64,000 bases of DNA from Phycisphaeraceae bacterium (GTDB taxonomy: Bacteria > Planctomycetota > Phycisphaerae > Phycisphaerales > Phycisphaeraceae). The position numbers and the translations under genes are program-made. Where the stretch lies: the NCBI GenBank assembly GCA_963674705.1, contig OY771506.1, positions 1,216,001 to 1,280,000 on the forward strand. The letters are read 5' to 3'. Below are positions 25,874-61,312 of this stretch, piece by piece (positions within the stretch are counted from its first letter, which is position 1; each line of letters starts with the position of its first letter). The notes under the pieces were generated by a model. That model did not search any database and was not told the DNA's origin. It saw only the letters and a list, made by a program, of their open reading frames with translations.

Positions 25874-25945
25874 AGCCGCAAATGAACGCTAATGCACGCA
25901 AATGTTGAATCCCTTATTCGCGTCCATTAGCGTTCATTCGCGGCT
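25874..25945. repeat. nonamer-periodic inverted repeat (AGCCGC-headed)
   Basis: agccgcaaatgaacgctaatgcacgcaaat / attcgcgtccattagcgttcattcgcggct. Confidence 0.8.
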
Positions 25946-34641: not shown

Positions 34642-36405
34642 ATGTCACAGACCAACGCCAAGCTCTCGCGCATCTTCCAGCAGATGGCGGACGTCCTCGA
34701 AGTCCTCGGGGCCAACCGTTTCAAGGTCATCGCTTTCCAGAAAGCCGCCCGCGTCTTAGGCGAACTCACCGACGACGTCGCGTCCATGGAAAGTAAAGAC
34801 CTGCGCGCTGTCGAAGGCATCGGCAAAGGCATGGCCGACCGCATCGAGGAATTCGTCGAGACCGGCGGCCTGCCCGAAGCCATCGAACTGTTCGATCAAG
34901 TCCCGCCCGGCGTTATCGAGATGCTAGACATCCCGGGCCTCGGCCCAAAGACCGTCTCCATCCTCTGGAAACAGGCGGGCCTCGAAGATATCCCTTCACT
35001 GACCAAAGCCCTCGACACCGGCGAACTCGAAGACCTCAAAGGTTTCGGCAAGAAGAAAATCGAGAACATCAAGAAGAACCTCGCCTTCGCCCAGCAGGCC
35101 GGCAAGCGCGCGAAGATCGGCCAGGCTATGCCGCTCGCCCTCTGGTTCGTCCAAGAGCTTGGCAAACTCAAACAAGTCAAACGCATCAACTACGCAGGCA
35201 GCCTCCGCCGCGGCAAGGAAACCATCGGCGACCTCGACCTGCTCGTCGAAGCCAAGCCCGCCGACGTCCCCGCCATCATGGACGCCTTCGTCAAACTTAA
35301 TGTCGTCGCGGATGTGATCGCCAAAGGCGAAACGAAAAGCTCGGTCCGCACTAATGAACAATCCGGCCAGATACAAGTCGATCTGCGTGTCGTCCCCGCC
35401 GAAAGCTACGGCGCTGCACTCATGTACTTCACCGGCAGCAAGGAACACAACGTCAAGATGCGCGAACGCGCCATCTCGATGGGCATGAAGCTAAACGAGT
35501 GGGGCCTGACCAAACAGGATGCCGACAAATCCCTTGCCGGCAAGGCCGAAGAAGACGTCTTCAAGAAACTCAAACTCGCATGGGTCCCCCCCGAGCTGCG
35601 CGAAGACCGCGGCGAAATAGCATTGGCTGAATCCTCCTACAAAGCCGGCGATGCCATCGCCGGTCCCCCGCTCGTCGAACTTGCCGACATCCGCGCCGAC
35701 CTGCACATGCACACCACCGCCAGCGACGGCACGTGGACGATTGAAGAACTCGCCCTCGCCGCCGCCGAGCGCGGCCACCACACCGTAGCCATCACCGACC
35801 ACTCAAAAGGACAGGTCCAGGCCAACGGCCTAAGCGACGCACGACTTGAAAAACACATCGTCAACATCCGCAAGGTCGCCGACAAACTCAAGGACAAGAT
35901 CACCATCCTCGCGGGCAGCGAAGTCGACATCCACGCCGACGGCACGCTCGACTACCCCGACAGCCTGCTCAAAGAACTCGACGTCGTCGTCGCCTCGCCC
36001 CACGCCGCGCTCAGCCAGGACCCCGCCAAGTGCACCAAGCGCTTCCTTAAGGCGATGGAAAATCCTTACATCACCATCATGGGCCACCCGACCGGCCGAC
36101 TCATCGGCAGACGCGAAGGCCTCAGCCCCGACATGAGCGAACTCTTCAAAGCCGCCGCCCAGCGCGACATCGCCATGGAAATCAACGCCAACCACTGGCG
36201 CCTCGACCTCCGTGACACCCACGCCCGCGCAGCCATCGCCGCCGGCGTCAAACTCTCCATCAACACCGACGCCCACGGCCCAGCCGACCTCAACCAACTC
36301 CAATACGGCATCCTCACCGCCCGCCGCGCCGGCGCAACAAAGAAAAACATCATCAACTGCATGACCAAAGCAGCGCTGGCGAAGTGGATCAAATCCCGCC
36401 GGTGA
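34642..36405 (+). CDS. polX: DNA polymerase X with C-terminal PHP exonuclease domain
   Basis: HhH motifs; GSLRRGKETIGDLD; YFTGSKEHN; DLHMHT..SDG; TDHS; NTDAH. Confidence 0.95.
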   Translation: MSQTNAKLSRIFQQMADVLEVLGANRFKVIAFQKAARVLGELTDDVASMESKDLRAVEGIGKGMADRIEEFVETGGLPEAIELFDQVPPGVIEMLDIPGLGPKTVSILWKQAGLEDIPSLTKALDTGELEDLKGFGKKKIENIKKNLAFAQQAGKRAKIGQAMPLALWFVQELGKLKQVKRINYAGSLRRGKETIGDLDLLVEAKPADVPAIMDAFVKLNVVADVIAKGETKSSVRTNEQSGQIQVDLRVVPAESYGAALMYFTGSKEHNVKMRERAISMGMKLNEWGLTKQDADKSLAGKAEEDVFKKLKLAWVPPELREDRGEIALAESSYKAGDAIAGPPLVELADIRADLHMHTTASDGTWTIEELALAAAERGHHTVAITDHSKGQVQANGLSDARLEKHIVNIRKVADKLKDKITILAGSEVDIHADGTLDYPDSLLKELDVVVASPHAALSQDPAKCTKRFLKAMENPYITIMGHPTGRLIGRREGLSPDMSELFKAAAQRDIAMEINANHWRLDLRDTHARAAIAAGVKLSINTDAHGPADLNQLQYGILTARRAGATKKNIINCMTKAALAKWIKSRR

Positions 36406-36420
36406 TGAACAAAGAAGTGG

Positions 36421-37278
36421 AACAGGGATGGACACGGATAAACACGGATGAAGAGGTGAAAACTAAAACTAGCTATTAAGTAGTTTGTCAATAAGTAGTG
36501 ATGCACCCCGTTTGTCAATGTTGTTCAGCCTACGTGGTGTAGCACCAAGATCTAGTAATAAATAAATTTGTCGATCTGTCGCTGTATATACAATATTCTT
36601 CGCAATTGCCTCCCATTTAAGTTTACGCTCAATTCTTTGGCGTTCAATATGTTCGGATCGCATTTTCTGCACGCGCAACGATTCTTCTGTTTCGCTGTAC
36701 CAATCTGTATTCCAGATTGTTGAGGCGTCAGCATGAGTATGGTGACGACATCTACCCGAAACGCTTTTGGTCATATTTGCACAACGCACTTGACCATTAT
36801 TGAAACCGATACACTGTATGGAATCTTTTAGCTTCCCGTATTTGTCTTGCGGGCCATTCAATCTCTGCCATACTACGAAGCAAATACCAACCGCCCCAAA
36901 GCGATTCGATTTCAATAGAATTTGAGCTGATCGTGTTTGGAGAAAAAAGTCCATGAAACTCTCAACCTCTTCGGGGCTGACAGATGGAGGCCGATCATAA
37001 AGATATGAAAATATATCGTCCGTACGATCTAGTCCAACAGCGGCTGACACAGTATCAAATGTAGATTGATAAACTACGACGGGGTAACCATGTACTGAAA
37101 ATTCTATAGGCACTACATCTAATAGTGCATGTGTGCCAGCATGCTTCTGCTTTCTCCATGGAAGGCGAGATAAAAACGCTTTGAACCCATGCATTTAGGA
37201 TTATCCCAAGAAACACGGATATGGATAAATTCTGTATTTCCTATGATTCATCCGTGTTCATCTGTGTTCATCCCTGTT
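36421..37278. mobile_element. nonamer inverted-repeat pair enclosing an AT-rich cargo gene (cassette-like)
   Basis: Arm 36421-36452 is the reverse complement of arm 37247-37278 with 3 mismatches. Confidence 0.6.
36469..37194 (-). CDS. AT-rich hypothetical protein with putative CCCH zinc finger and C-terminal ATxxQ..LG..K..AS.LID motif
   Basis: 241-aa ORF; C-x9-C-x10-C-x2-H; composition much more AT-rich than its neighbours. Confidence 0.7.
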   Translation of the reverse strand: MHGFKAFLSRLPWRKQKHAGTHALLDVVPIEFSVHGYPVVVYQSTFDTVSAAVGLDRTDDIFSYLYDRPPSVSPEEVESFMDFFLQTRSAQILLKSNRFGAVGICFVVWQRLNGPQDKYGKLKDSIQCIGFNNGQVRCANMTKSVSGRCRHHTHADASTIWNTDWYSETEESLRVQKMRSEHIERQRIERKLKWEAIAKNIVYTATDRQIYLLLDLGATPRRLNNIDKRGASLLIDKLLNS

Positions 37279-37287
37279 ACATACGAT

Positions 37288-38055
37288 TCACGCCCCCAAC
37301 TCAATCCGTTTCCGTATCGCCCGAAACAGCGCCGTCTGGTCGCGGGTCGGTTCCAGTTCCACGCCGTTGATCGTGATTTTCACCTGGATCGCGCGAGCGA
37401 GTCTGCGGAACAGGTCCGGGTCGAGGTCGAACGTCAGGCTTTCGTCGTCCTTGCGCATCGTGTGTTTATTTGCTACACGTGCCGTACGGGCGACAGCCTT
37501 GTACTCGGCGATCGGGACTTCGACTTTTTCACCATCGATATCGAAGGTGGCGGTTTTCGCGTTGCGGTAGACCCCGCCGGAGAAACGCGATTGGATGAAG
37601 AGCTTGATGACTTCGGGCTTTTCCTGCATCTGCTTGCCGTCAAACATATACGCCAGCGAGAACTGATGATCCGCCCCGCTGCCCTTGGCGACATGCAATA
37701 ACTCCGTGCCGCTCCGCACAACTGTTTTGCCTGTCGATTCATCGTACTTGCTGGTAAACCGCGACGCCGCAACCTCGACGCGATCGCCGCTTGGCGTCAG
37801 CCCCGCCAACTCCGTCAGCTCTTTCTTCTCAACCTCCAAATCTTCCTTGGTAACCTGCAGCTTCGCCAACTCCGCTTGCAGTTTCGCCATCTCCGCTTCG
37901 AGCTTTTCGTAATCCGACTTCACCCGCTCAAGCTCCGCGCGCAGCTCCGCGTTCTGTTTTTGTAACGCCGCCACATCGTCTGTTGTTTGTGCAAAGCTAG
38001 CCGATGCAAACAGCAGAACAATCAGGCAGCAGGAAAAAGTCAGTAGGTATCTCAT
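37288..38055 (-). CDS. secreted coiled-coil hypothetical protein
   Basis: Signal peptide (SFA-Q); heptad coiled coil in N-terminal part. Confidence 0.75.
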   Translation of the reverse strand: MRYLLTFSCCLIVLLFASASFAQTTDDVAALQKQNAELRAELERVKSDYEKLEAEMAKLQAELAKLQVTKEDLEVEKKELTELAGLTPSGDRVEVAASRFTSKYDESTGKTVVRSGTELLHVAKGSGADHQFSLAYMFDGKQMQEKPEVIKLFIQSRFSGGVYRNAKTATFDIDGEKVEVPIAEYKAVARTARVANKHTMRKDDESLTFDLDPDLFRRLARAIQVKITINGVELEPTRDQTALFRAIRKRIELGA

Positions 38056-38129
38056 GGCAGGTCCGTGGTTGGTGGTTGATCTTAAGTGTTTGTTGTTTGA
38101 TGATTGGTCTTTGATGGTTAGTTGAAGAG

Positions 38130-38165
38130 GCCCGCCCCTTCGCTTCGCTCAGGACCGGCGTTGGG
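38130..38165 (-). repeat. dispersed REP-like repeat, copy 1 (copy 2 at 50861-50896), inside degenerate heptamer arrays at ~38070-38125 and ~38200-38255
   Basis: Reverse complement cccaacgccggtcctgagcgaagcgaaggggcgggc matches 50861-50896 with 3 mismatches. Confidence 0.75.
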
Positions 38166-38256
38166 CTGCGCATCAGCGCTTCACCCTTTTTCACTTCAAC
38201 ATCCTATCCATCAACAATTCCAAATCATACATCCTCAATCATAAATCATAAATCCG

Positions 38257-38694
38257 TCACCCGTCCGGTTTCGCCTTGCCGATATCCGCTAATCCCAACG
38301 GGTCCTCCGGCACGGCAAACATACTCCGCTTCACCTTCGCCCCCTTCTGCATCACCACGTTCGGCGCGGTCAGGTCGCCGTGATAATCACACTTCGGCCC
38401 GAGCGTGACCGTCCCGCCGGAGAGCACGTGCTTAGCGTCGATGATCCCCTGGCAGTCGATCCCGCCGTGCGCCTCGATCGTTTCGACGATGAGTCGGCCA
38501 CGCTTTGCGACGGTGATCTTGCCGCAGGTCCTAAGCTCCTTGAGCGGGCCACGCAGCTTGGTGATGTGTTCGTCCCCGACCATCAGGGCCTTGTTGCAGC
38601 CCGGGCAGGATGTGGACTGGGCGCGACCGCTGACCTCGAAGCGATGTCCGCAGTGGTAACACTGAACCAGGCGTGGGCCTTGGTGTCGCGCCAT
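38257..38694 (-). CDS. bactofilin-like protein with N-terminal zinc ribbon
   Basis: CYHC...CPGC followed by beta-helical repeats (GKITV, GTVTLG, GDLTAPNVVMQKGAKV). Confidence 0.8.
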   Translation of the reverse strand: MARHQGPRLVQCYHCGHRFEVSGRAQSTSCPGCNKALMVGDEHITKLRGPLKELRTCGKITVAKRGRLIVETIEAHGGIDCQGIIDAKHVLSGGTVTLGPKCDYHGDLTAPNVVMQKGAKVKRSMFAVPEDPLGLADIGKAKPDG

Positions 38695-38802
38695 GAGTAA
38701 AACCGCGAGTGGATCTCGGGTGGTGAAGGTACGCAGTACCTAAGCGCGCAGCGGCGCGCCGTCGATCGACGGCCGATCGCACTTAGCCATTACGCATGAC
38801 GC

Positions 38803-39219
38803 TTACTTCTTGGGAGGCTGACCGCCCGGCTGCGGTTGTCCGCCTTGTGGCTGGCCGCCACCGCTCGGCGCCGCTGAACTGGGCCTGCCCGAATCCGGAC
38901 CGACGGCACACATGCCGTGGAAACTTGCCCCCTCGCTCATCACCATCTTCGCCGCGGTGATGTCGCCGCGCACGACGCCCGAGCCGTTGAGCTTGACGGT
39001 GTCCTTGGCGTTGAGGTTGCCCTCGACCAGCCCGTCGACCTGCACGCCCGCGGCGTCCACATCGGCTTTGCACTGCGCGTTCTGGCTGACCTGAAGCTCA
39101 CCCTTGCCCGTGATCTTCCCGTCGAACTTCCCGTTGATCCTGGCGGTCCGCTCGAATGTGAGCTCGCCCTTGAAGTGGCTGTCCGAGCCTACGATGGTGG
39201 TGTCGCCTGTTTCGGCCAT
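38803..39219 (-). CDS. bactofilin (CcmA family polymer-forming cytoskeletal protein)
   Basis: TIVGSDSHFKGEL...VDGLVEGNL...GDITAAKMVMSEGASFHG. Confidence 0.92.
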   Translation of the reverse strand: MAETGDTTIVGSDSHFKGELTFERTARINGKFDGKITGKGELQVSQNAQCKADVDAAGVQVDGLVEGNLNAKDTVKLNGSGVVRGDITAAKMVMSEGASFHGMCAVGPDSGRPSSAAPSGGGQPQGGQPQPGGQPPKK

Positions 39220-39512
39220 GTCTAACTCCTTGACTATAAGGGTGAAAAATACAACTAACGCAGCCGCCCACCGCGGCCACAGTGTTAACTAAGTGTAAGT
39301 CAGGTCAGGTCCTTTGGGTAGGTGCGCTAAACTGGCCCGATCAAACCCCGGCAGGGCTGTTTTCAGGCCGCCCCTCTTTCGCGGGCCCCGGGCAATCGAG
39401 ATTGAAATTAACTCGCAATACCAAAGCACTTACGGCGATTGCAGAATGCTTTTACATAAACTTCCCTCTAATATGTTGCTTCACAGGATGATTTGAACCC
39501 GAAAGGCGATCA

Positions 39513-41978
39513 ATGCCCCCCCAAGCCCTGCGTCTACCAATCACACTGCCCGAAGACCCTCGCCAACGCTCGCTCTACGCGGGCTGCCTGCAGGATCGGC
39601 TCGCCGGCCAGCGCGGCGTCCAGTCCGTCCGCCTCGTCGAAGATGAGGGCTCGGATGGCAAAACCCGCAGCGGATACATCGAACTCGACTACGACCCCCA
39701 CATCGTCAGCCTCACCCAGATCAACGGCTATCTCCGCACGGCCGACAGTTGCCTCAGCGAATCCGTCGGCCACGTCGTGATGCCCGTCGAACGCATCGTC
39801 TCGGCGCGGCACGAAAAAACCATCGAAGCCAAACTCAACCGCTTGCCCGGCGTCCGGTGCAGCGCTTCCTACACCTCGCAAACCCTGCGGATCGAATTCG
39901 ACCGCCAGCAGTGCGCCCTGCCGCAGATCGTGTTCGTGCTCGAACAGGAAGGCGTCCGCGTCCTGCCCACACGAACGCCCGGCAGCCTCAGCGTCGATCA
40001 GGATGTTAAGCAGACTGGCCCGACCGCTTCCGCTTTCCAGCCACAACAGCACGGCTGGTTCCGCTCGGCACTGCGAGAAAAAGACATCGTGCTCGCGGTG
40101 TTGGCCGGACTCTTCCTGCTGGGCGGTTTCCTCGTCCACATCACCGGCGGACCGCAGGAAATCCGCATCGCGCTGTTGCTCGTCAGTTATGTCTGTGGCG
40201 GCTTCTACCCCGCACAGGACATGATCGAAACCCTCGCCGACTTCAAACTCGATATCGACCTGCTTATGTTCGCCGCTGCTTTCGGTGCTGCGGCGCTCGG
40301 GCACTTTGAAGAAGGCGCGATGCTGTTGTTCCTGTTCAGTCTCGGTGGCGCGGGTGAAAGGCTTGCGATCAGCCGGGCGCGCGGCGCGATCAAAGCCTTG
40401 GCAGACCTCACACCACAGACCGCCATGCTCGTTCAACCTGACGGTAAGCCGCGCGAAGTCCCCGTCGAAGAATTGCGCATCGGTGACCGCGTTCTGGTTG
40501 CACCCGGTCAACGTCTGCCCGCCGACGGCAAAATCATCACGGGCGATTCCGCCATCGATCAATCTCCCATCACAGGTGAATCCGTCCCTGTCGATAAACT
40601 GCCCGGCGACAGCGTCTTTGCCGGCACGATCAACGGCGACGGCACACTCACCGTCGAAGTCGGCAAACTCGCATCCGACAACACGCTCGCCAAAGTCGTA
40701 CGCATGGTCGAAGAAGCGCAAACCACCAAGAGCCCGACACAGTTGTTTACCGACCGCGTCGAGAAGTGGTATGTCCCGCTGGTCGTGATCGCGACGGTGA
40801 TGCTGATTGTTATTCCGCCGTTAGCCGGCCTGCAACCGAGGCGCGAACACACCAGCGACTGGGCGGGCTGGTTCTACCAGGCGATGGCGTTCCTCACCGC
40901 CGCGTCTCCCTGTGCATTAGCGATCGGCACCCCGGCCGCGGTCCTCAGCGGGATCGCACGTGCGGCGCGCGAAGGCATGCTCGTTAAAGGCGGCGCACAC
41001 CTGGAAAACCTCGGCCGCGTTCGCGCGATCGCTTTCGACAAAACAGGCACACTCACCTTCGGCCGGCCCGAAGTGACGGATATCGTCCCGCTTGCAGATA
41101 ACGTTGATGAACAGCGACTGCTTTTCCTCGCCGCATCGGTCGAAGCCGGCAGCCGGCACCCGATCGCAGAAGCGATCGTGAACGCTGCTGACAACCGCTC
41201 GATCCCGCACACCATGGCGGACGACATCGACCAGACGCCCGGCATCGGCATCAGCGGCGTCGTCGATGCAGCGACCATCACCGTCGGCCGCCCCGCTTCG
41301 TTCGCCAATCCCCTGCAAGGCGTCGAACCCATGCAGCAGCGCGCGATCGATTTGGAAGATGCTGGCCGAACCGTCGTCGCGATCGCCGATGACAAACAAA
41401 TCCTCGGCATCATCGGGCTTGCAGATAAGGCCAGGCCCGAAGCGCGCGAAATGATCGCTAAACTCAAAGACTACGGCGTCAACCACACCATCATGCTCAC
41501 CGGCGACAACCAACGCACCGCCGCCGCCATCGCCAAAAACGTCGGCATCGATGAATACCTCGCAGACCTCATGCCCGAAGACAAGGTCGGGAAGGTCCGT
41601 GAACTGGACGCACGCTACACACGCGTCGCCATGGTCGGTGACGGCGTCAACGATGCACCCGCCATGGCAAATGCAACCGTCGGCATCGCGATCGGCGGCG
41701 CCGCCGGCTCCGCAAGTGATGTGGCGCTGGAAACCGCTGACATCGTCCTGCTCGCTGACAACCTCGGCAAACTCCCTGCCGCCATGAGTGTCTCGCGCTT
41801 CGCACGCAGGATCATCATCCAGAACCTGGTCATCGCGCTGGGCGTGATTATCGTCCTCGCACCGATCGCCGCGCTCGGCGGCACACCGATATCCCTGGCC
41901 GTCCTCTTCCACGAGGGATCCACCGTCCTGGTCGTCATCAACTCCCTGCGCATCCTCACACATAAAACCGATGGCTGA
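39513..41978 (+). CDS. heavy-metal P1B-type ATPase (P1B-4-like: SPC and HEGST motifs)
   Basis: TGES, SPCAL, DKTGT, HP, TGDN, GDGVNDAP, HEGST. Confidence 0.93.
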   Translation: MPPQALRLPITLPEDPRQRSLYAGCLQDRLAGQRGVQSVRLVEDEGSDGKTRSGYIELDYDPHIVSLTQINGYLRTADSCLSESVGHVVMPVERIVSARHEKTIEAKLNRLPGVRCSASYTSQTLRIEFDRQQCALPQIVFVLEQEGVRVLPTRTPGSLSVDQDVKQTGPTASAFQPQQHGWFRSALREKDIVLAVLAGLFLLGGFLVHITGGPQEIRIALLLVSYVCGGFYPAQDMIETLADFKLDIDLLMFAAAFGAAALGHFEEGAMLLFLFSLGGAGERLAISRARGAIKALADLTPQTAMLVQPDGKPREVPVEELRIGDRVLVAPGQRLPADGKIITGDSAIDQSPITGESVPVDKLPGDSVFAGTINGDGTLTVEVGKLASDNTLAKVVRMVEEAQTTKSPTQLFTDRVEKWYVPLVVIATVMLIVIPPLAGLQPRREHTSDWAGWFYQAMAFLTAASPCALAIGTPAAVLSGIARAAREGMLVKGGAHLENLGRVRAIAFDKTGTLTFGRPEVTDIVPLADNVDEQRLLFLAASVEAGSRHPIAEAIVNAADNRSIPHTMADDIDQTPGIGISGVVDAATITVGRPASFANPLQGVEPMQQRAIDLEDAGRTVVAIADDKQILGIIGLADKARPEAREMIAKLKDYGVNHTIMLTGDNQRTAAAIAKNVGIDEYLADLMPEDKVGKVRELDARYTRVAMVGDGVNDAPAMANATVGIAIGGAAGSASDVALETADIVLLADNLGKLPAAMSVSRFARRIIIQNLVIALGVIIVLAPIAALGGTPISLAVLFHEGSTVLVVINSLRILTHKTDG

Positions 41979-42091
41979 ATAGAACGGATCAACGACATGC
42001 GTAACACGATGGGTGTCACACTTTGACTCCGCAGGAGCAAAGTGTGCAAGTAACAGCACACCGCGCCGAGAGCAACACGTTACGCGCAACA

Positions 42092-42124
42092 AACAACCCG
42101 GCAGCCAACGCCGTCGGGTTGTTC
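42092..42124. terminator. hairpin between convergent genes
   Basis: aacaacccg...cgggttgtt stem. Confidence 0.45.
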
Positions 42125-42144
42125 AATGTGTGATTCAGTTACGT

Positions 42145-43518
42145 TTACTTCGCCAGCGCGCCCATCGGGTCCCACGGCGGTAGCACGATCGGTTCCAGCT
42201 CGACCGCTTCCTTCAGTTCTTCCGGCAAATGTTCGCAGTGGATCGCCACCTCGAACATGTACTCGTCGAACCACGAGTCGTTCATGATGTAGAAACCCTT
42301 CTTGCCGTTCTCATCGCCCCAACTGTTCTCGACGCGCCAACGCCGAGGCGAATCATCGTCCTTCACATCCACGCCGGTGAACAGCATCGCGTGCGTCATC
42401 AGCGTCTGATGATAGATCAAACGCTCAGCCTTGGTGTGATTGAACGGTGTCTGGTAAACGCCTTCATAATCGAACAGCTTCGCGTCCCACAGCCCGAGGT
42501 TGCGCTGCATCATCTTCCCGACGTCGCAGCCCATCCACACCGGCTCGCCACCGATGAGCGTCTTCATCGTCAGCTTCTTCATCAGGTCCATCTCGATGTT
42601 CAGGTACTTCACCGGCTTACCGCCGATGACGTTGCCCAGATGCGCAACCGTGAACGTCTTACCCATCGGGCTCGTCGGCCGCGGGTCGTGAACAAGACAG
42701 ACATATTCATCCAGCGGCAGTGTGCAATACAAATCCGCAAACTCCAGCGGCGTCAGTTCACCATCACGATGGAAACGCTTGTCTTCATCCTGCCACTGCC
42801 AGACAAACTTCTCCGGCGGCGTGCCTAAATGAATGCACAACACGCGGTACACCGCTTCGACGATCTCAAGCTTCGCCGCCGCAACTTCATTGTCCGACTT
42901 CTTGTCCGCAATCATCTTGCGAAGTTTCGCCGCACCCTGTCGCAGCACCGTTAGAAGGATGCTGTTCATACGAGGTGTGTTACCCGAGCTTTCCGTCTCC
43001 GGCATAAACGCCTTGGGGACCAGCCCGTGCTTGCGCACGATACTCACGAACATGTTCCACTGACCGCCGTCATCCAAAGGCCGATCCAGCAGGTACGCCA
43101 CCACGCGATCGTCCGCGTCTTTGTCGGCCGTAGCAATAATCTGTTCGAGGAAGTAATTCGCCCGTTCGAGCTTGTCCCAGAACAGCGTATAGTTCTGGCT
43201 GAACTCGAAGTTCTTCAGCTTCATCTTCTTCATCGCCCCGACGCGCAGCAGGTTCAACCCCGCGAACATCCAGCAGCGCCCGGACTTCTTCTGGTTCGTC
43301 ACTTCCCAGTCGTCCAGGTGATGGCTGAACGTGTGGTCCATCGTCGTGACGACTTCGCGATTCAGCGCGACTTCATCGACCGCCGTCTGCGTGACCGCGT
43401 TCTGCATCAGCCTGTTACGCGGGTCGGCCGCAAACGAGGCACGCAATTCAGACAGAGTCTTTTCATCCAGCGCCGCCTCGGCCGCGCTCACGGAAGGATC
43501 AGATGACAGGGTAGACAC
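42145..43518 (-). CDS. pepC: aminopeptidase C / bleomycin hydrolase (peptidase C1B)
   Basis: NQKKSGRCWMFA, THAM, VENSWG, PWDPMGALA. Confidence 0.95.
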   Translation of the reverse strand: MSTLSSDPSVSAAEAALDEKTLSELRASFAADPRNRLMQNAVTQTAVDEVALNREVVTTMDHTFSHHLDDWEVTNQKKSGRCWMFAGLNLLRVGAMKKMKLKNFEFSQNYTLFWDKLERANYFLEQIIATADKDADDRVVAYLLDRPLDDGGQWNMFVSIVRKHGLVPKAFMPETESSGNTPRMNSILLTVLRQGAAKLRKMIADKKSDNEVAAAKLEIVEAVYRVLCIHLGTPPEKFVWQWQDEDKRFHRDGELTPLEFADLYCTLPLDEYVCLVHDPRPTSPMGKTFTVAHLGNVIGGKPVKYLNIEMDLMKKLTMKTLIGGEPVWMGCDVGKMMQRNLGLWDAKLFDYEGVYQTPFNHTKAERLIYHQTLMTHAMLFTGVDVKDDDSPRRWRVENSWGDENGKKGFYIMNDSWFDEYMFEVAIHCEHLPEELKEAVELEPIVLPPWDPMGALAK

Positions 43519-43671
43519 GAGTTAACTCCCACTAATAGATAACAGTTTGGGCACAATATAGCCTGTTTATACAATAATTAATAGAGACGCCCCAGTTTCC
43601 GACCGAGCCCTTGTTTAATCCGACATTTTTCTCTTTCCCCCGCCCCCTGATCAAAATATAATCTCCTCACC

Positions 43672-44877
43672 ATGTCAAACGGGGAAACGCACACACCGAC
43701 GGACCTTCAGGCTTTGGAGCATTTTGTCGTGGAAAACGACGAGCTGCTGGAACTGGAAGAACGGATCGGGCGGTTCAACATCTTCGACGCCCTGCGGATC
43801 GTGGATGCCGAGATACGCCACTCCAACTTCCTGGCCTGGCTCCTGGACCCGAACGAATCGCACGGCCAGGGGCCGCTGTTCCTCAAAGCTATCTTGATGG
43901 ACCTGCTGCGGCAGAGCCCGCCCGACCTGCGCCCCTTGAGCCCCGTCCAGATCGACGGCGCTGAATTGCGGGGCGTAGACATCCGCCGCGAGTGGCGCAA
44001 CATCGACATCTTGATTACCTGCAAAGACCCGGCGTTTGTGATTGCGATCGAGAACAAGATCAAAGCGGGCAAGTACAACCCGTTCAAAGAATACGAAAAA
44101 CGCATTCAGGCCGAGTTCCGCGGCCAGCCCACCATGTTCGTCCTGCTGACCACAGACGGTTCGGAGCTTGAAGACTCGCAGTGGGTGCCCTACTCCTACG
44201 AAGACATCCACAGCGTTTTAACGCGCGTGCGCAAAACCCACGCCACCAGCATCGGCGACGACGTGCTCGCCTTCCTCGACCACTACATCCGCCTGATCGG
44301 GAGCCGCTTTATGGACGATCCGAAAATCGACGAACTGTGCCAGACGATTTATAAGAATCATCGGCGAGCAATCGAGATGATTGTTGAACGCACTAAAGCG
44401 GGTCGATCTGAATTGCTGTCCGCTATCGAGGACTTGATTCGTTCGGATGAGCAGCGTTGGGTATTCCTGAATTCGACGACTCGTAATATCGCGTTTCTAC
44501 CCAAGCGGTGGTATGAATGCGTGCCGCCCATTGGAGATAATCCCAGAAAAGACCCTCGGTCATGGTTGTATTGGGATTTGTGGTGCTATAACGGTTCATG
44601 TCGTTGGCGTCTGGTTTGTAACAAGGTTAACGACGAGTCGTTGCGCAAGAATATTGTGTCGGCTATCAGCGGTTCTCAAGCGGGATTTGGGTTGAAGGCG
44701 CGCAAACGAGATTTATCGCGTGGGTGGAACAGTCTTGGTTTACGTCTGATCGAAAAGTGGGCGGATGACGACCCAGAACCGCAAGTAATTATCCCAAAGA
44801 TAGAAAAGCTTATGGCCAAGTTGGAACAAGAGCTGGCGGGTATACCCGACGTTTTAAAGAAGATAAAGCTTGCATAA
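43672..44877 (+). CDS. PD-(D/E)XK nuclease family protein (PDDEXK_4-like)
   Basis: FNIF..EIRHSNFLAWLLDP..HG, RREW.NIDILI, IAIENKI. Confidence 0.85.
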   Translation: MSNGETHTPTDLQALEHFVVENDELLELEERIGRFNIFDALRIVDAEIRHSNFLAWLLDPNESHGQGPLFLKAILMDLLRQSPPDLRPLSPVQIDGAELRGVDIRREWRNIDILITCKDPAFVIAIENKIKAGKYNPFKEYEKRIQAEFRGQPTMFVLLTTDGSELEDSQWVPYSYEDIHSVLTRVRKTHATSIGDDVLAFLDHYIRLIGSRFMDDPKIDELCQTIYKNHRRAIEMIVERTKAGRSELLSAIEDLIRSDEQRWVFLNSTTRNIAFLPKRWYECVPPIGDNPRKDPRSWLYWDLWCYNGSCRWRLVCNKVNDESLRKNIVSAISGSQAGFGLKARKRDLSRGWNSLGLRLIEKWADDDPEPQVIIPKIEKLMAKLEQELAGIPDVLKKIKLA

Positions 44878-44885
44878 TGTTGTTC

Positions 44886-44915
44886 GCCCACGTTCGGCGA
44901 ACGTGGGCTTCGGGG
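44886..44915 (+). repeat. REP hairpin of the RAYT1 family, copy 1
   Basis: gcccacgttcg-g-cgaacgtgggc-ttcgggg. Confidence 0.85.
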
Positions 44916-44933
44916 TATTTCTTGGAGTCATTG

Positions 44934-45533
44934 ATGCCCGGGTGGAACGGCTGGTATCACTGTATGGCCAACACCTACGGCACCTGGTTGCCGGGGGACC
45001 CGCGCGGGTTTCGCACGCGCAATCACCGGGAGCACGTTGATGGTGATTACAAGAATCCGCCACCCAAAGGTAAGTACGACCAGCGGCACGAGTCAGCGAA
45101 GTCCCGGATGGATCGGGAGGCTGTCTACCTGACGCCTGAGGCGAGGCGGGTAGTGTGCGAAGAGTTGCAGGATTCACTGGTAAGACATGGTGCTGAGCCC
45201 ATCGTCATCAGTGTCAGCGTCATGCACATGCATGTCTTAGCGCGGTTCCCGCTTGAAGGGAAGCCCGCGTTCGCCGAACGTGGGCTTCGGGGCAAACCTA
45301 CATCAGCAGTGGATGATCCCGTGCGTCACATCATGGGGCTTGCCAAACAGTGGTCCGCCAAGCGTTTGATTGCTGAAAACCTCACCGCTCCCGGCGGCAT
45401 CTGGGCGGGCAAGGGGAAAATCGTTCCGATCAAAGATCGATCGCATCAAGTCCGAGTCTATCACTACATCCTCAACCACGGCCCCAAAGAAAATGCAGCG
45501 GTGTGGTGCTTTCGGGATAGTAAACACGAGTGA
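44934..45533 (+). mobile_element. REP-associated tyrosine transposase (RAYT, IS200/Y1 HUH family), RAYT1
   Basis: TYGTWLPGDPRG N-terminal motif, HMH HUH motif, W..G and YIL.H catalytic Tyr region; flanked by REP hairpins. Confidence 0.85.
45260..45292 (+). repeat. REP hairpin of the RAYT1 family, copy 2 (inside the RAYT ORF)
   Basis: gaagcccgcgttcg-c-cgaacgtgggcttc-gggg. Confidence 0.85.
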
Positions 45534-45545
45534 GTAAACAACAAA

Positions 45546-45580
45546 GAAGCCCGCGTTCGTCGAACGTGGGCTTCCGGGGG
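45546..45580 (+). repeat. REP hairpin of the RAYT1 family, copy 3
   Basis: gaagcccgcgttcg-t-cgaacgtgggcttc-cggggg. Confidence 0.85.
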
Positions 45581-45604
45581 TTTATTTTGTATTCCGTCTT
45601 TCGC

Positions 45605-47215
<1,611 letters not shown>

Positions 47216-47335
47216 TCATTGACAGGATCACCACACACCCGTTCTGCCACGATCTGGGGAATTTGATTCGTACTTGCTGGATAACGTGTTATACTCACCC
47301 AGCCCTATTGTTATCAGACGCATGGAGGCGTCCGC

Positions 47336-48526
47336 TTGACCGCGACGAATTCCTCATCCATCCAGGAAACTTCCGCCCAAGGCCAGCCCGCCGATATCGC
47401 TGCGCCTCAGCAGCACCCGCCGCAGGCTGAATCCACCCCCACCCAGCCCACGCCACAGCAGTCCGCCCAGCAGCCCCAGCCCCAGCCCCAGCCCAAGCAA
47501 CAACATGACACGCCGGCTGCCGAACCCCAACCGGTCAGCGAGCCTGTCATCACCCCCGGCATCCAGCCGACCGTTTCGCATAAAGACCCCGAGCCCACAC
47601 CGCCACCCGCCGCGCCCAAGCCGGATAACAACCGCCCGACGCGCATCATCGCCCTGATGAACCAGAAAGGCGGCGTCGGCAAAACCACCACCTGCACCAA
47701 CCTCGGCGCAGCCCTCGCCCGCATGGGCCAGCGCGTCCTCATGATCGACCTTGATCCGCAGGCCCACCTCACGCTCTCGCTCGGCGTCGACCCCGACGCG
47801 ATCGAAAAGAGCATGTACGACCTGCTCACCGATCCCACCACCACCGCACAAGAGGTCGTTCAACCCATCGGTGAAGACGGCCAACTCCAGATCCTCCCCG
47901 CCGAAGTCAACCTCGCCGGCGTCGAAGCCGAACTGGCCGACAAAGTCGTCACCGGCATGGCGCAGACGGTTTTAAAGCAGAAAGTCGCTCCGTTTGTGTC
48001 GGGTACCGGGTATCGGGTATCGGGTCTCGGAAGAGGCCAGGAACAAGACCCGAAACCCGAAGCCCGAAGCCCGAAACCCGACTACATCCTCATCGACTGC
48101 CCACCTAGCCTCGGCCTGCTCACCGTCAACGCCCTCACGCTCGCCAGCGAAGTCATCGTCCCCATGCAGGCGCACTTCCTGGCGCTGCAAGGCCTCGGCA
48201 AGCTCTTCGAAACCATCATGATGATGAAGCAGGGCATCAACCCCTCGCTCAGCGTCGCCGGCGTCGTCCTCTGCATGCACGAGGGCAACACCATCCTCGC
48301 CAACGAAGTCATCAACGATGTCAACGGCTTCCTCGAAGCCGCCCGAGGCACCGATGCCCCCTGGGCCGACGCCGTCGTCTACCACCCGCCCATCCGCCGC
48401 AACATCAAACTCGCCGAAAGCCCCAGCTTCGGCCAAAGCATCTTCGACTACGCCCCCGACTGCCACGGTGCTCAGGACTACGCCAAGCTCGCCGAGTCCG
48501 TCATCGGCCAGCGCGTCAACCAATAA
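47336..48526 (+). CDS. ParA/Soj family ATPase with Pro/Gln-rich N-terminal extension
   Basis: GGAGG RBS + TTG; NQKGGVGKTTT, DLDPQ, DCPPSLG, IRRNIKLAESPSFG. Confidence 0.92.
   Translation: MTATNSSSIQETSAQGQPADIAAPQQHPPQAESTPTQPTPQQSAQQPQPQPQPKQQHDTPAAEPQPVSEPVITPGIQPTVSHKDPEPTPPPAAPKPDNNRPTRIIALMNQKGGVGKTTTCTNLGAALARMGQRVLMIDLDPQAHLTLSLGVDPDAIEKSMYDLLTDPTTTAQEVVQPIGEDGQLQILPAEVNLAGVEAELADKVVTGMAQTVLKQKVAPFVSGTGYRVSGLGRGQEQDPKPEARSPKPDYILIDCPPSLGLLTVNALTLASEVIVPMQAHFLALQGLGKLFETIMMMKQGINPSLSVAGVVLCMHEGNTILANEVINDVNGFLEAARGTDAPWADAVVYHPPIRRNIKLAESPSFGQSIFDYAPDCHGAQDYAKLAESVIGQRVNQ
47998..48082. repeat. in-frame heptamer inverted repeat inside ParA
   Basis: (tcgggta)n arm and (acccgaa/gcccgaa)n arm. 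Confidence 0.85.
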
Positions 48527-50860: not shown

Positions 50861-51065
50861 CCCAACGCCGGTCCTGAGCGCAGCGAAGGTCCGGGCGGTT
50901 TGTATAAATAACCACAGAGACACAGAGAAAATACATTTTCAAAAGAGATAAACACGGATTAACACAGATAAGAAGTGTTAGTTGTTGATTGCATCACACC
51001 AGATCCTATCCGTGTTCATCTGTGTTCATCCCTGTTCCCCGTCTTCTTCTCTGTGTCTCTGTGAT
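50861..51065. repeat. stack of three repeat families: REP-like copy (50861-50896), outer nonamer IR (50911-50929/51047-51065), inner nonamer IR (50941-50970/51007-51036)
   Basis: Inner right arm atccgtgttcatctgtgttcatccctgtt is identical to 37250-37278. Confidence 0.8.
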
Positions 51066-51076
51066 TCAAACCCAAA

Positions 51077-52522
51077 CTAAACCTTCGTCTTCAACCACCC
51101 GCCATGGAAGAAACGGCCGGCAAACAATATCCCGCGCACCGCCATCTCGCCGCAGAGCCCGTACCAGATCCCGACCAGCCCAAGACCGAAGTACATCCCG
51201 AACAGGTACGCCGCCGGCAAGCGGAACACGAACAGGCTGATGTACCCGAGGATCATCGTCGACCGCGTGTCGCCTGCGCCCTTGATCGCCTGGCTGAACA
51301 CGATGTACATCGCGAAGAAAGGCTGAACCCAGCCGCAAACCCAAAGCAGTTGCGGCGTCACTTCACGATGCACCGCCACCGGCGAAACCAACGCGATCAG
51401 CTTGTCTCCCATCGTGATAAACACCACACCGCTGACCGTCATCACCGTCACCGCGATCCCGCAGCACATTAACGCCGATCGCCTCGCCATCGTCGGGTCT
51501 TCCGCGCCAAGGTACTGCCCGACCAGGATCGCCGCCGCGCCCGCCAGCGCGAAGCCCGGCAAAAAGCTCGCCGACTCGATACGCACCGCCCACATGTGCG
51601 AGCCCATCAAACCCTCGGACGATGCAAGATGGCCGATCATCAGGATCACCAGGAAGTTGCCGCCCCAGATGACGATTCCCTCTGCAAGCTGCGGTATCGC
51701 AACACGGATGATGCGCTTCGCGGTATGCCAATGCGGCTTCAGACGCGCCGGACGCAGGCGAATCAATCGCTTACCACGGAACAGAACAAACATCGTCAGC
51801 ACCGCACCGACACCCCACGCGACCGCTGTGCCCGCCGCGATCCCCGCGACGCCATGCCCGCCGATCGGTTCAGGCCCGTAAACAAACAGCAGACTCGTGC
51901 AGACGTTCACCGCGTTCACAACAACGATGACGAAGAAAGGCGTTCGCGTATCACCCGCTGCACGCAGACACGCACCGCCGACAAACAACACCGAACTCAT
52001 CGGCCCCGCCAGCGAAACGATGCGCAGATACATCGTGCCCAAATCCAGCGCCATCGCTTCCAGACCCGCCAACAACACGATCAATCTTGCCAGCGCATAG
52101 ATGATCACCGACATCCCCAGACCCATGAGGATCGCCAGTAAAATCGCCTGACCCAGTGCCGCGTTGGCTAACCGTTTGTGGCGTCCGCCGATCGCACGCG
52201 ACACCAGCGCCGACGCCCCGACGCCGACCGATCCCATCAGTAAACCCATCAGCCAGTTCACGTATCCCGCAACGCCCAACGCATCGTTCGCCGCGACCGC
52301 CAGATCCTCCGGCTTAAGCTGCGACGCCAGGTACATGTCCACCGTCCCGACCAGGAACGCCATCACCTGTTCAAGCAAAGGCCAGATCGCCAGCACCAGA
52401 ATCTGCTTGCGCAGCGACAGCCCCGCCAGCTTCCCACCCAACGCTCTGGGCACCGGCGCAGCCACCGCCACCGCTTCACTTTCAGATCCTTCATCACGGC
52501 GCATGGCGGGCATTGTAGCCAT
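51077..52522 (-). CDS. MATE family efflux transporter
   Basis: Multi-TM protein; duplicated LRAAGDTRTP / IKGAGDTRST motifs; VGQYLGA. Confidence 0.92.
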   Translation of the reverse strand: MATMPAMRRDEGSESEAVAVAAPVPRALGGKLAGLSLRKQILVLAIWPLLEQVMAFLVGTVDMYLASQLKPEDLAVAANDALGVAGYVNWLMGLLMGSVGVGASALVSRAIGGRHKRLANAALGQAILLAILMGLGMSVIIYALARLIVLLAGLEAMALDLGTMYLRIVSLAGPMSSVLFVGGACLRAAGDTRTPFFVIVVVNAVNVCTSLLFVYGPEPIGGHGVAGIAAGTAVAWGVGAVLTMFVLFRGKRLIRLRPARLKPHWHTAKRIIRVAIPQLAEGIVIWGGNFLVILMIGHLASSEGLMGSHMWAVRIESASFLPGFALAGAAAILVGQYLGAEDPTMARRSALMCCGIAVTVMTVSGVVFITMGDKLIALVSPVAVHREVTPQLLWVCGWVQPFFAMYIVFSQAIKGAGDTRSTMILGYISLFVFRLPAAYLFGMYFGLGLVGIWYGLCGEMAVRGILFAGRFFHGGWLKTKV

Positions 52523-52575
52523 GTAGAAAAATCACGCGCGTGAGCTTTCGATAAACAAACCACGCACACAAGACA

Positions 52576-52727
52576 CGCGCACGCTGGCAGCGTGCGGCTA
52601 TAAGCTCTTAGTAAACAGTACGCGTTCAGAAGCAACCAGCCGCGAGCAGCCCTGCTCGCGCGCTGAACGCCCAACAATCATTACCCGTCCCGAAGCAACC
52701 AGCCGCAGGCAGCCCCGCCTGCGCGCC
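52576..52727. repeat. left REP array of RAYT2 (three AGCCGC-stem-GCGCG hairpins)
   Basis: Hairpins at 52576-52601, 52629-52663 and 52692-52727. Confidence 0.85.
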
Positions 52728-52733
52728 AACCCT

Positions 52734-53216
52734 TCAGCAATCATTGCCCTTCCCTTCAAACCAACACACCCCCCGATGGTCGGGCAGATACACCCCCAGC
52801 AGATAATCAAAGTGCTCCTGATCCGCGACATGTTTCTGACTGCCACCACGGCCGAACCAGTGTGCTTTACGTGAATGTTCATTTAACCTGCGCGTCAGCG
52901 ATTGCTTCAGGTTCTGCCGAACATCTTTCGCGTCTTTTTCAGTCGACAAACTCACAAGTATGTGAACATGCGATGCATCGGTTGCAATCCCGTGCAGCCG
53001 CAATGATTGGTTCTCGCATGCTTCTTTAGTAATGGCGATCAGTTGTGTTTGAATCTGCGCATCAAACTTAACAACCACCTGCTGTTGTCTTTCACGATAA
53101 CGATCCGCCATCTTGATGCTTTGTGGTTGAATCCCTTTGCCCCGCTGAACGTATCCGCGCTTGCGATCGGGCATCCACGAACCATAAGCATGAAACGTGA
53201 AGAGATAAACCGGCAT
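52734..53216 (-). mobile_element. REP-associated tyrosine transposase (RAYT, Y1 HUH), RAYT2
   Basis: YLFTFHAYGSWMPD, SHVHIL HUH motif, WFGRGGS, C-terminal Tyr; REP arrays on both sides. Confidence 0.85.
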
Positions 53217-53267
53217 ATGGGGATTGTACAAAGAACGCTGCGTAGAAGGTATTTGTAATAGAAAATC

Positions 53268-53406
53268 CGCGCACGCTGGCAGCGTGCGGCTATTGGCTAT
53301 TGGTAATCAAAGTGTGTTCAGAAGCAACCAGCCGCAGGCAGCCCTGCCTGCGCGCCGACCGACCAGTAACCATTACCCGTCATGAACAACCAGCCGCGGG
53401 CAGCCC
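53268..53406. repeat. right REP array of RAYT2 (two full hairpins and one truncated)
   Basis: Hairpins at 53268-53293 and 53321-53356, half-hairpin 53384-53406; same order and spacer motifs as the left array. Confidence 0.85.
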
Positions 53407-53505
53407 GGCCAGCTTCCCGCCCAACGCTTTGGGCACGGGCGCAGCCACCGCCACCGCTTCACTTTCCGATCCTTCTTCACGGCGCATGGCGGGCATTGTA
53501 GCCAT
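53380..53505 (-). pseudogene. truncated duplicate of the MATE gene 5' end (35 codons, then runs into REP and stops)
   Basis: 53401-53522 matches 52418-52539 at 115 of 122 nt; translates MATMPAMRREEGSESEAVAVAAPVPKALGGKLAGL-PAAGCS*. Confidence 0.85.
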
Positions 53506-53668
53506 GTAGAAAAAGCACGCGCATCTGTGAGGATTGGGTAAGTAAACCACCCACTATCGGACACCGGCTATTAATGCCCGCCCTTCTGCTGTAAACGTTC
53601 GCGGAAAACAGGTCGATATCAGTCAGACGGTTCTGTTCAAACATATTAACTCTGACCAGGGGAATTCG

Positions 53669-61239: not shown

Positions 61240-61312
61240 AGCCGCGAAAGGACGCTAATAGACGCGAATAATCAGAGATTTTATTTGCGTCTATTAGCAT
61301 TGATTTGCGGCT
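61240..61312. repeat. nonamer-periodic inverted repeat (same family as 25874)
   Basis: agccgcgaaaggacgctaatagacgcgaataa / ttatttgcgtctattagcattgatttgcggct. Confidence 0.8.

Follow-up and report, generated by a model that had tools for sequence, protein, structure and literature searches.

Organisation of the cassette behind polX

How does a single AT-rich gene come to lie between two inverted repeat arms that the same chromosome also carries as a short doublet without a gene? The question is raised by a locus in a 64,000-nt stretch of DNA from a marine planctomycete, a Phycisphaeraceae bacterium (genome G000, contig C1, positions 1216001-1280000), which we call the window; positions marked "window" are counted within this stretch and positions marked "genome" on contig C1. 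An initial annotation had seen two 32-nt arms (window 36421-36452 and 37247-37278) around one ORF and had taken such palindromes to be landing or capture sites for single genes, integron-like in outcome and lacking attC and IntI. The arms are indeed inverted and differ at 3 of 32 positions, and the ORF between them (window 36469-37194, minus strand) encodes 241 aa at a GC content of 0.42, compared to 0.566 for the genome, with gaps of 16 and 52 nt to the arms, as described. In having terminal inverted repeats and no transposase inside, the layout resembles a MITE or mobile insertion cassette. Both arms are of a kind we call A-type and consist of three 10-nt units, the left arm (window 36420-36452, plus strand) of units at 36420-36429, 36430-36439 and 36440-36449 plus 3 nt, the right arm (window 37247-37278) on the minus strand. 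To the left the polX-PHP gene (window 34642-36405, plus strand) converges on the cassette; to the right follows a 255-aa ORF (window 37288-38055, minus strand), the first gene of a block that is inverted relative to seven congeners. No sigma-70-type promoter was found near the enclosed gene, and a comparison of the cassette and its arms with Rfam gave nothing near gathering score.

A third copy of the arm unit, overlooked in the initial annotation, lies in direct orientation at window 37211-37220 (plus strand, AAACACGGAT), 16 nt upstream of the start codon of the enclosed gene and 29 nt before the right arm. It is an exact repeat of the last unit of the left arm (36440-36449), with a chance expectation of 0.0014 in 55 nt. 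The AT-rich stretch behind it (window 37221-37249) measures 29 nt, the length of the commonest spacers of empty doublets, and without 36450-37220 the remainder would look like an ordinary empty doublet.

The enclosed gene belongs to an unnamed family, with 34 homologues among cluster representatives. The putative CCCH zinc finger is borne out by conservation, C138, C149 and H152 being invariant in 33 aligned rows and C128 kept in at least 90%, and the protein is predicted to bind zinc. The helical motif at its C-terminus is also conserved and occurs in other proteins too; the resemblance to phage- or helicase-associated domains read into this protein earlier found no support in any family or fold match. 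Pfam and NCBIfam contain no match and the Atlas no usable one. The structure model is confident (mean pLDDT 89); Foldseek found no fold match in the PDB and viral sets at E 0.001, and the best VIA fold match (Z 5.0) covers a helical piece, with the middle domain barely probed. We considered whether the protein mobilises itself and rejected this, given the missing family and fold matches and the armless homologues: the arms are absent at all five distinct homologue loci, and the same holds for five of five homologues of an unrelated 170-aa gene that is enclosed by such arms elsewhere in the genome. Both genes are thus cargo, acquired without arms in other lineages; nothing indicates that the 241-aa protein takes part in moving its gene, and its function is probably irrelevant to that movement. 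Relatives carrying the gene without arms had been named as an observation that would speak against capture. This is true of the distant homologues, which fit a captured passenger, and not of G004, the only close relative with the gene.

The arm family in the genome

A profile of three-unit arms matches 157 copies in the genome and none in a shuffled genome. When two-unit arms are allowed the number rises to 183 arms, 115 of C-type, 62 of A-type and 6 untyped. The arms are tandem 10-nt units without internal symmetry and hence not self-palindromes. Most of them (128 of 183) form 64 short inward-facing doublets, and no outward-facing pair was found within 250 nt; the two arms are typed alike in 58 doublets, mixed in 2, and in the remaining 4 one arm is untyped. 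Spacers cluster at 18-57 nt and 86-131 nt and are less conserved than the arms, and many of the longer ones contain doublets of other periodic families. Outside the 64 doublets we found no excess of direct repeats (longest direct match 3.83, compared to 4.0 in permutations), and no target-site duplication of the kind known from MITEs or MICs was seen, a test which a 2-nt duplication escapes and for which few clean empty alleles are available. The strict arm pattern is present in 39 of 144 genomes of the family. We conclude that the arms are real and non-random, and that they are REPIN/REPtron-like.

The initial annotation had predicted two classes of spacer length, empty and gene-sized, and further loaded pairs. 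The distribution is multimodal, 52 of 59 pairs measuring ≤195 nt and the remainder being gene-sized, and further loaded pairs do exist. Among the 55 arms outside the short doublets, neighbours that are 250-1500 nt apart face inward in nine cases, stand in tandem in four and never face outward, while 0.17 inward pairs would be expected from random placement. The nine inward pairs contain two GxxExxY genes, three passenger ORFs, one IS element with a DDE transposase, and in three cases no convincing gene; gene-sized pairs hold GxxExxY genes, passengers or whole IS elements inside their spacers. The three passengers (241, 170 and 185 aa) are unrelated to each other, and their GC content falls within the lowest 2.5% of genome windows. 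Among the matches listed for seven other genomes, 31 arm-bearing stretches included one GxxExxY cassette, one 295-nt pair without ORF and no passenger pair.

The empty counterpart of the cassette, at window 50941-51036, is an A-type doublet which is present also in G004. Its existence stands as annotated; its spacer, given as 36 nt, measures 38 nt between the last arm units. The reported 29-nt identity between 37250-37278 and 51008-51036 is exact, and the special link drawn from it falls away, as this 29-mer occurs four times in the genome; the right arm in G004 differs at two of its positions. The doublet is itself nested between two arms of a second periodic family, the CACAGAG type (window 50910-50927, plus strand, and 51049-51066, minus strand). 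Folded as DNA, the window doublet reaches z scores of -1.9 to -2.5.

GxxExxY nuclease genes between periodic arms

All three GxxExxY genes of G000 stand between inverted periodic arms. At genome 2217400 and 2220338 the loaded pairs contain intact genes that are clear members of the family (TIGR04256), and one of these two, at genome 2220387-2220758, has the same A-type arms as the 241-aa cassette. Five other genomes contain 23 GxxExxY genes, one of which lies at a contig edge and was excluded from scoring; the other 22 are without exception flanked by inverted periodic arms, with pair scores of 15-39, while random pairs score at most 11. Five of these 22 loci have A, A-like or C arms. On a tree of 24 GxxExxY proteins, which omits the G000 copy with a stop and the copy at the contig edge, arm labels change 11 times, compared to a shuffled mean of 18.3, and none of 200 shuffles was as low; the A-type is placed at 95/92, and C-type arms need two changes. 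The tree of 24 rows demonstrates clustering and not cause, since co-inheritance alone can give it.

We regard GxxExxY as the likely cognate gene of the arms. A capture system built on them would therefore not be free of an enzyme; the initial annotation had missed this gene. The family (PF13366, PDDEXK_3) is given as of unknown function in the accessible text of PMC3424549. Our literature search found nothing that links GxxExxY to repeats or arms, supplements and most subscription journals being outside its coverage.

Several further observations concern these genes. The third GxxExxY gene of G000 (genome 2957870-2958297) has an internal stop and CACAGAG-type arms, and the site in G004 is an empty A-type doublet. 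At genome 2218971-2219327 a four-helix-bundle gene stands in heptamer arms between two GxxExxY cassettes within 3.5 kb; G004 carries there a GxxExxY gene with arms of another family. In two cases, at genome 2217408 and at locus L036:6060-6665 of G009, the arm supplies the in-frame start codon of the adjacent ORF, which suggests that arms may help to express the genes they enclose.

Loaded and empty alleles in two close relatives

Stretches around most of the listed arms of G004 were compared with G000 by mapping their flanks. Of 73 pairs in G004, 51 have a G000 pair at the same site, 11 have none, 2 retain one arm and 9 could not be mapped. By eye, the inner DNA is clearly different in about 10 of the 51 shared doublets; an automatic count gave 17 of 51 with less than 70% spacer identity, a figure that includes two parsing errors and several borderline cases. 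Loaded and empty alleles occur at one and the same site. The 170-aa gene of G000 occupies genome 374404-375090, a site that in G004 is an empty nested doublet; the two genomes have the outer and inner arms and the flanks in common, the left junction lies directly behind an arm unit, and contigs from runs X5 (possibly the source of G004 itself) and X10 also join across the site in the empty form. A similar direct unit, with one mismatch, precedes the start of this gene by about 18 nt. Likewise, an empty doublet of G000 corresponds to a GxxExxY gene in G004; at another site it is G000 that carries such a gene, G004 showing other repeats behind a shared arm start. One 96-nt spacer occurs in both genomes at sites that are not orthologous, with 96% identity, which indicates that arm-bounded units change address. 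The 185-aa gene is a weaker case: it abuts the same right arm as the empty doublet of G004, and 3 kb of other DNA to its left also differs.

With loaded pairs and same-site swaps found elsewhere, the arms are likely landing sites for single genes, possibly driven by the GxxExxY nuclease; this much of the original proposal holds. The reading we prefer, with a probability of about 0.5, is that the arms are copies of a REPIN-like repeat, whose inner DNA varies between strains at the same site, and that the 241-aa passenger entered an existing empty doublet through a crossover at a 10-nt unit, probably triggered by GxxExxY. We infer that the nuclease recognises the arms and cuts them; through repair or strand exchange at one unit, DNA bearing a matching unit would then be brought in, and the outcome would be left arm, gene, duplicated unit, the old 29-nt spacer and right arm.

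Several observations count against this reading. A matching direct unit is missing from the 185-aa cassette, and no passenger was found at two different sites. The empty 170-aa allele of G004 is not the direct precursor of the loaded one, as its spacer differs from that remaining in G000. Moreover, spacers also receive IS630- and IS4-like elements, as judged by eye from the ORFs of these elements, and such insertions mimic loading; the gene-sized pairs of 1.2 and 1.5 kb in G004, tried as cases of gene loading, were rejected as such IS insertions.

The swaps can also be read as the work of host recombination, which would use the widely shared arms as short homology anchors, with GxxExxY being only their commonest occupant. 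In several swaps one crossover falls within an arm while the second lies in a flanking gene, several unrelated repeat families behave alike, and recent homologous exchange between G000 and G004 is common in the region (gene identities of 90-100%). REPs have been found to coincide with recombination points at O-antigen loci of E. coli, as far as the accessible text of PMC3158064 goes. We nevertheless regard this reading as rather unlikely, because the arms stay conserved despite the turnover of their spacers and because the arm type follows the nuclease tree. For RecA, moreover, arms of 20-30 nt and a duplication of 10 nt are short.

Low-GC genes and other repeat families

The placement of repeats around low-GC genes, which had been expected to be non-random, was examined in a crude set of 4221 longest non-overlapping ORFs. 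Of 76 isolated low-GC ORFs, 13 are enclosed by inverted repeats, compared to 0.33 with permuted flanks; when free space is required on both sides, 7 of 34 low-GC ORFs are bracketed versus 18 of 975 genes of normal GC content. The 13 ORFs comprise three GxxExxY genes, two four-helix-bundle-like genes, one of them confirmed as TIGR02436, and eight passengers of several repeat families. Two low-GC genes (genome 1127227-1127889 and 975750-976313) lie between direct repeat copies where G004 has one copy and no gene, and are clean insertion footprints, with repeat-gene-repeat set against a single repeat. At one further site of this set, G004 has different content between the same arms. The wider pattern supports the landing-site reading and at the same time keeps recombination by the host alive as its rival.

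A more general proposal, tentative and if anything doubtful, is that GxxExxY and the periodic arms constitute a capture system without integrase, in which hundreds of scattered empty doublets would be the attachment sites, cutting at a 10-nt unit would allow single foreign genes to enter and leave, and arms shared across lineages would act as universal adapters for gene exchange. If true, this system and its sister repeat families would account for about one sixth of the isolated foreign-looking genes in the genome.

The site behind polX in congeners

G004 carries the 241-aa cassette at 99.7% identity, arms included. We rejected this value as a special feature of the passenger, since pepC and the next gene are 99.9-100% identical. 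G000 and G004 are the only 2 of the 144 genomes of the family with the gene. In the ten congeners compared behind polX, one (G004) has the same cassette and two have empty doublets, that of G003 being A-like; G002 has a GxxExxY cassette with arms of another family, G009 another ORF, of 194 aa, with an A-type arm on its right side alone, G001, G005 and G010 armless inserted genes, and G007 and G008 nothing. Two limits of this comparison weigh against the preferred reading. The spot evidently takes genes without arms, as it did in three of the ten congeners, and in seven congeners the comparison is only half orthologous, because the block at window 37288-48526 is inverted and the junction there is polX-parA.

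No empty allele of the 241-aa locus was found, the gene being present in G004 and in the long contigs from runs X1, X3 and X5. Joints in four runs that skip 36450-37249 were considered as empty-site reads and rejected as artefacts, because they carry the spacers of other doublets, in one case that of genome 3415561; run X7 has no coverage of the gene and is shallow, so that it speaks neither way. Compared to seven congeners, G000, G004 and G009 have the block itself, which extends from the 255-aa ORF to parA, in inverted orientation; G007 shows a third arrangement, and the breakpoints of these rearrangements all lie in convergent spacers, often with periodic repeats.

The armless genes of G001, G005 and G010 suit a different history, in which the gene reached a tolerant convergent spacer by itself, doublets inserted to its left and right and their inner arms decayed, the unit at 37211 being a remnant of the right doublet. 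The right end of the cassette can be read as a short doublet that has decayed, genome 2250668-2251479 shows a gene with a doublet on either side, and MITE pairs are known to form such composites, according to the accessible part of PMC4133298. On the left side, however, the 16 nt to the stop codon leave neither room for a second arm nor a remnant of one; such a process would also yield outward-facing solo pairs, of which we observed none versus nine inward; and the 170-aa site shares its flanks and outer arms with an empty allele. This coincidence of separate insertions is distinctly unlikely in our view, and entry of the gene into an existing doublet remains the reading that we prefer.

Other repeats and Y1 genes in the window

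The window contains further repeats. Two empty doublets of a sister family with 10-nt period lie at window 25874-25945 and 61240-61312, the first with a folding z score of -7.0; arms of this type also stand on both sides of GxxExxY genes in G004 and in G009. Another high-copy palindrome is found twice, at window 38130-38165 and 50861-50896, with read depth over the former about 50 times that of its flanks. A Y1 gene (IS200/RAYT-like, window 52734-53231) with its palindromic repeats occupies window 52418-53522 and is absent from G004; in G000 it is flanked by a direct duplication of 122 nt from the start region of a MATE gene, 94% identical. Finally, a 199-aa ORF (window 44934-45533) is RAYT-like by eye and matches no family; its locus (window 44886-45586) carries three copies, one of them inside the ORF, of a palindrome that the genome contains 51 times.

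With 14 Y1 genes in the genome, the arms could be imagined as true REPs moved in trans by a RAYT/Y1 transposase that is able to sequester genes as well; cleavage and recombination of BIMEs by TnpAREP have been seen in vitro, and the authors proposed such sequestering (PMC3333891, from the part of the article accessible). This is highly improbable here, as the nearest A or C arm to any of the 14 Y1 genes (PF01797 matches) is 1859 nt away and the Y1 gene of the window is surrounded by a different repeat family, the arms bracketing GxxExxY instead.

A side observation concerns an array inside one arm pair at genome 5346902-5348174 and at the corresponding G004 locus, in which direct repeats of another family stand between single genes; both genomes have a 124-aa gene, next to which G000 carries a 100-aa gene and G004 a 180-aa gene, so that the locus resembles a cassette array, with no integrase nearby. 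An integron cassette with unusual attC sites, for which this two-gene array of changing content and the single small genes between imperfect palindromes might be quoted, can practically be dismissed: as the initial annotation had claimed for IntI, no integron integrase passes the TIGR02249 cut-off (0 of 7 matches, best stretch 77 bits against a cut-off of 265, in a genome 96.6% complete), the arms stand on both sides of the gene in inverted orientation, where an integron would have one attC behind each gene, and no attC core was seen by eye at the cassette ends.

Comparison with known systems

Integron cassettes are single small accessory genes exchanged at repeat-defined sites. The loci described here are similar in outcome, as single small accessory genes are exchanged, and differ in having no IntI above the cut-off and no attI/attC layout, with sites scattered over the genome. 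With MITEs, mobile insertion cassettes (MIC231, cited by title in PMC6542083) and TIME composites (PMC4133298), they share inverted ends around little DNA or a passenger, the transposase being absent. Unlike these, they have no excess of direct repeats outside the arms, no DDE transposase was seen with these ends, and the content changes inside fixed arms, whereas a MITE or MIC inserts as a whole.

What the locus contributes are swaps between loaded and empty forms at strain level, a direct unit at the passenger junction and genome-wide enrichment. It offers a route by which single orphan genes could enter bacterial chromosomes without integrases or transposases, gives a widespread nuclease family of unknown function a testable substrate, and permits a concrete test of a long-open question, namely what a host gains from REP-like repeats and the enzymes paired with them. 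As a tool, too, a small nuclease able to direct exchange at a 10-nt unit could be useful.

The closest resemblance is to the REPIN-RAYT, REPtron and BIME systems (PMC3116915; PMC3333891; PMC3733652), taken as the accessible texts present them. REPINs are inverted doublets with variable spacers that are moved by RAYT (PMC3116915), and for BIMEs cleavage and recombination, precise loss of the enzyme gene while its repeats stay in place, and gene sequestering, the latter as a proposal, have been described (PMC3333891); such loss and the proposed sequestering are among the points of likeness. Common to these systems and ours are many intergenic inverted doublets with conserved arms and variable spacer and, as in REPtrons, an enzyme gene flanked by the same repeats. 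Measured against the same texts, an arm here is a run of direct 10-nt units and not a self-palindrome as in REPINs, and the flanked gene encodes a PD-(D/E)XK protein, GxxExxY, and not an HUH transposase of the Y1 type; movement as a unit is reported not to occur in REPtrons, whereas GxxExxY cassettes occupy different sites in close relatives; and the repeat families here nest inside one another, unlike those of REPINs or REPtrons. The system is thus REPIN/REPtron-like and not a member of that class, its arms being no palindromes and no Y1 gene going with them.
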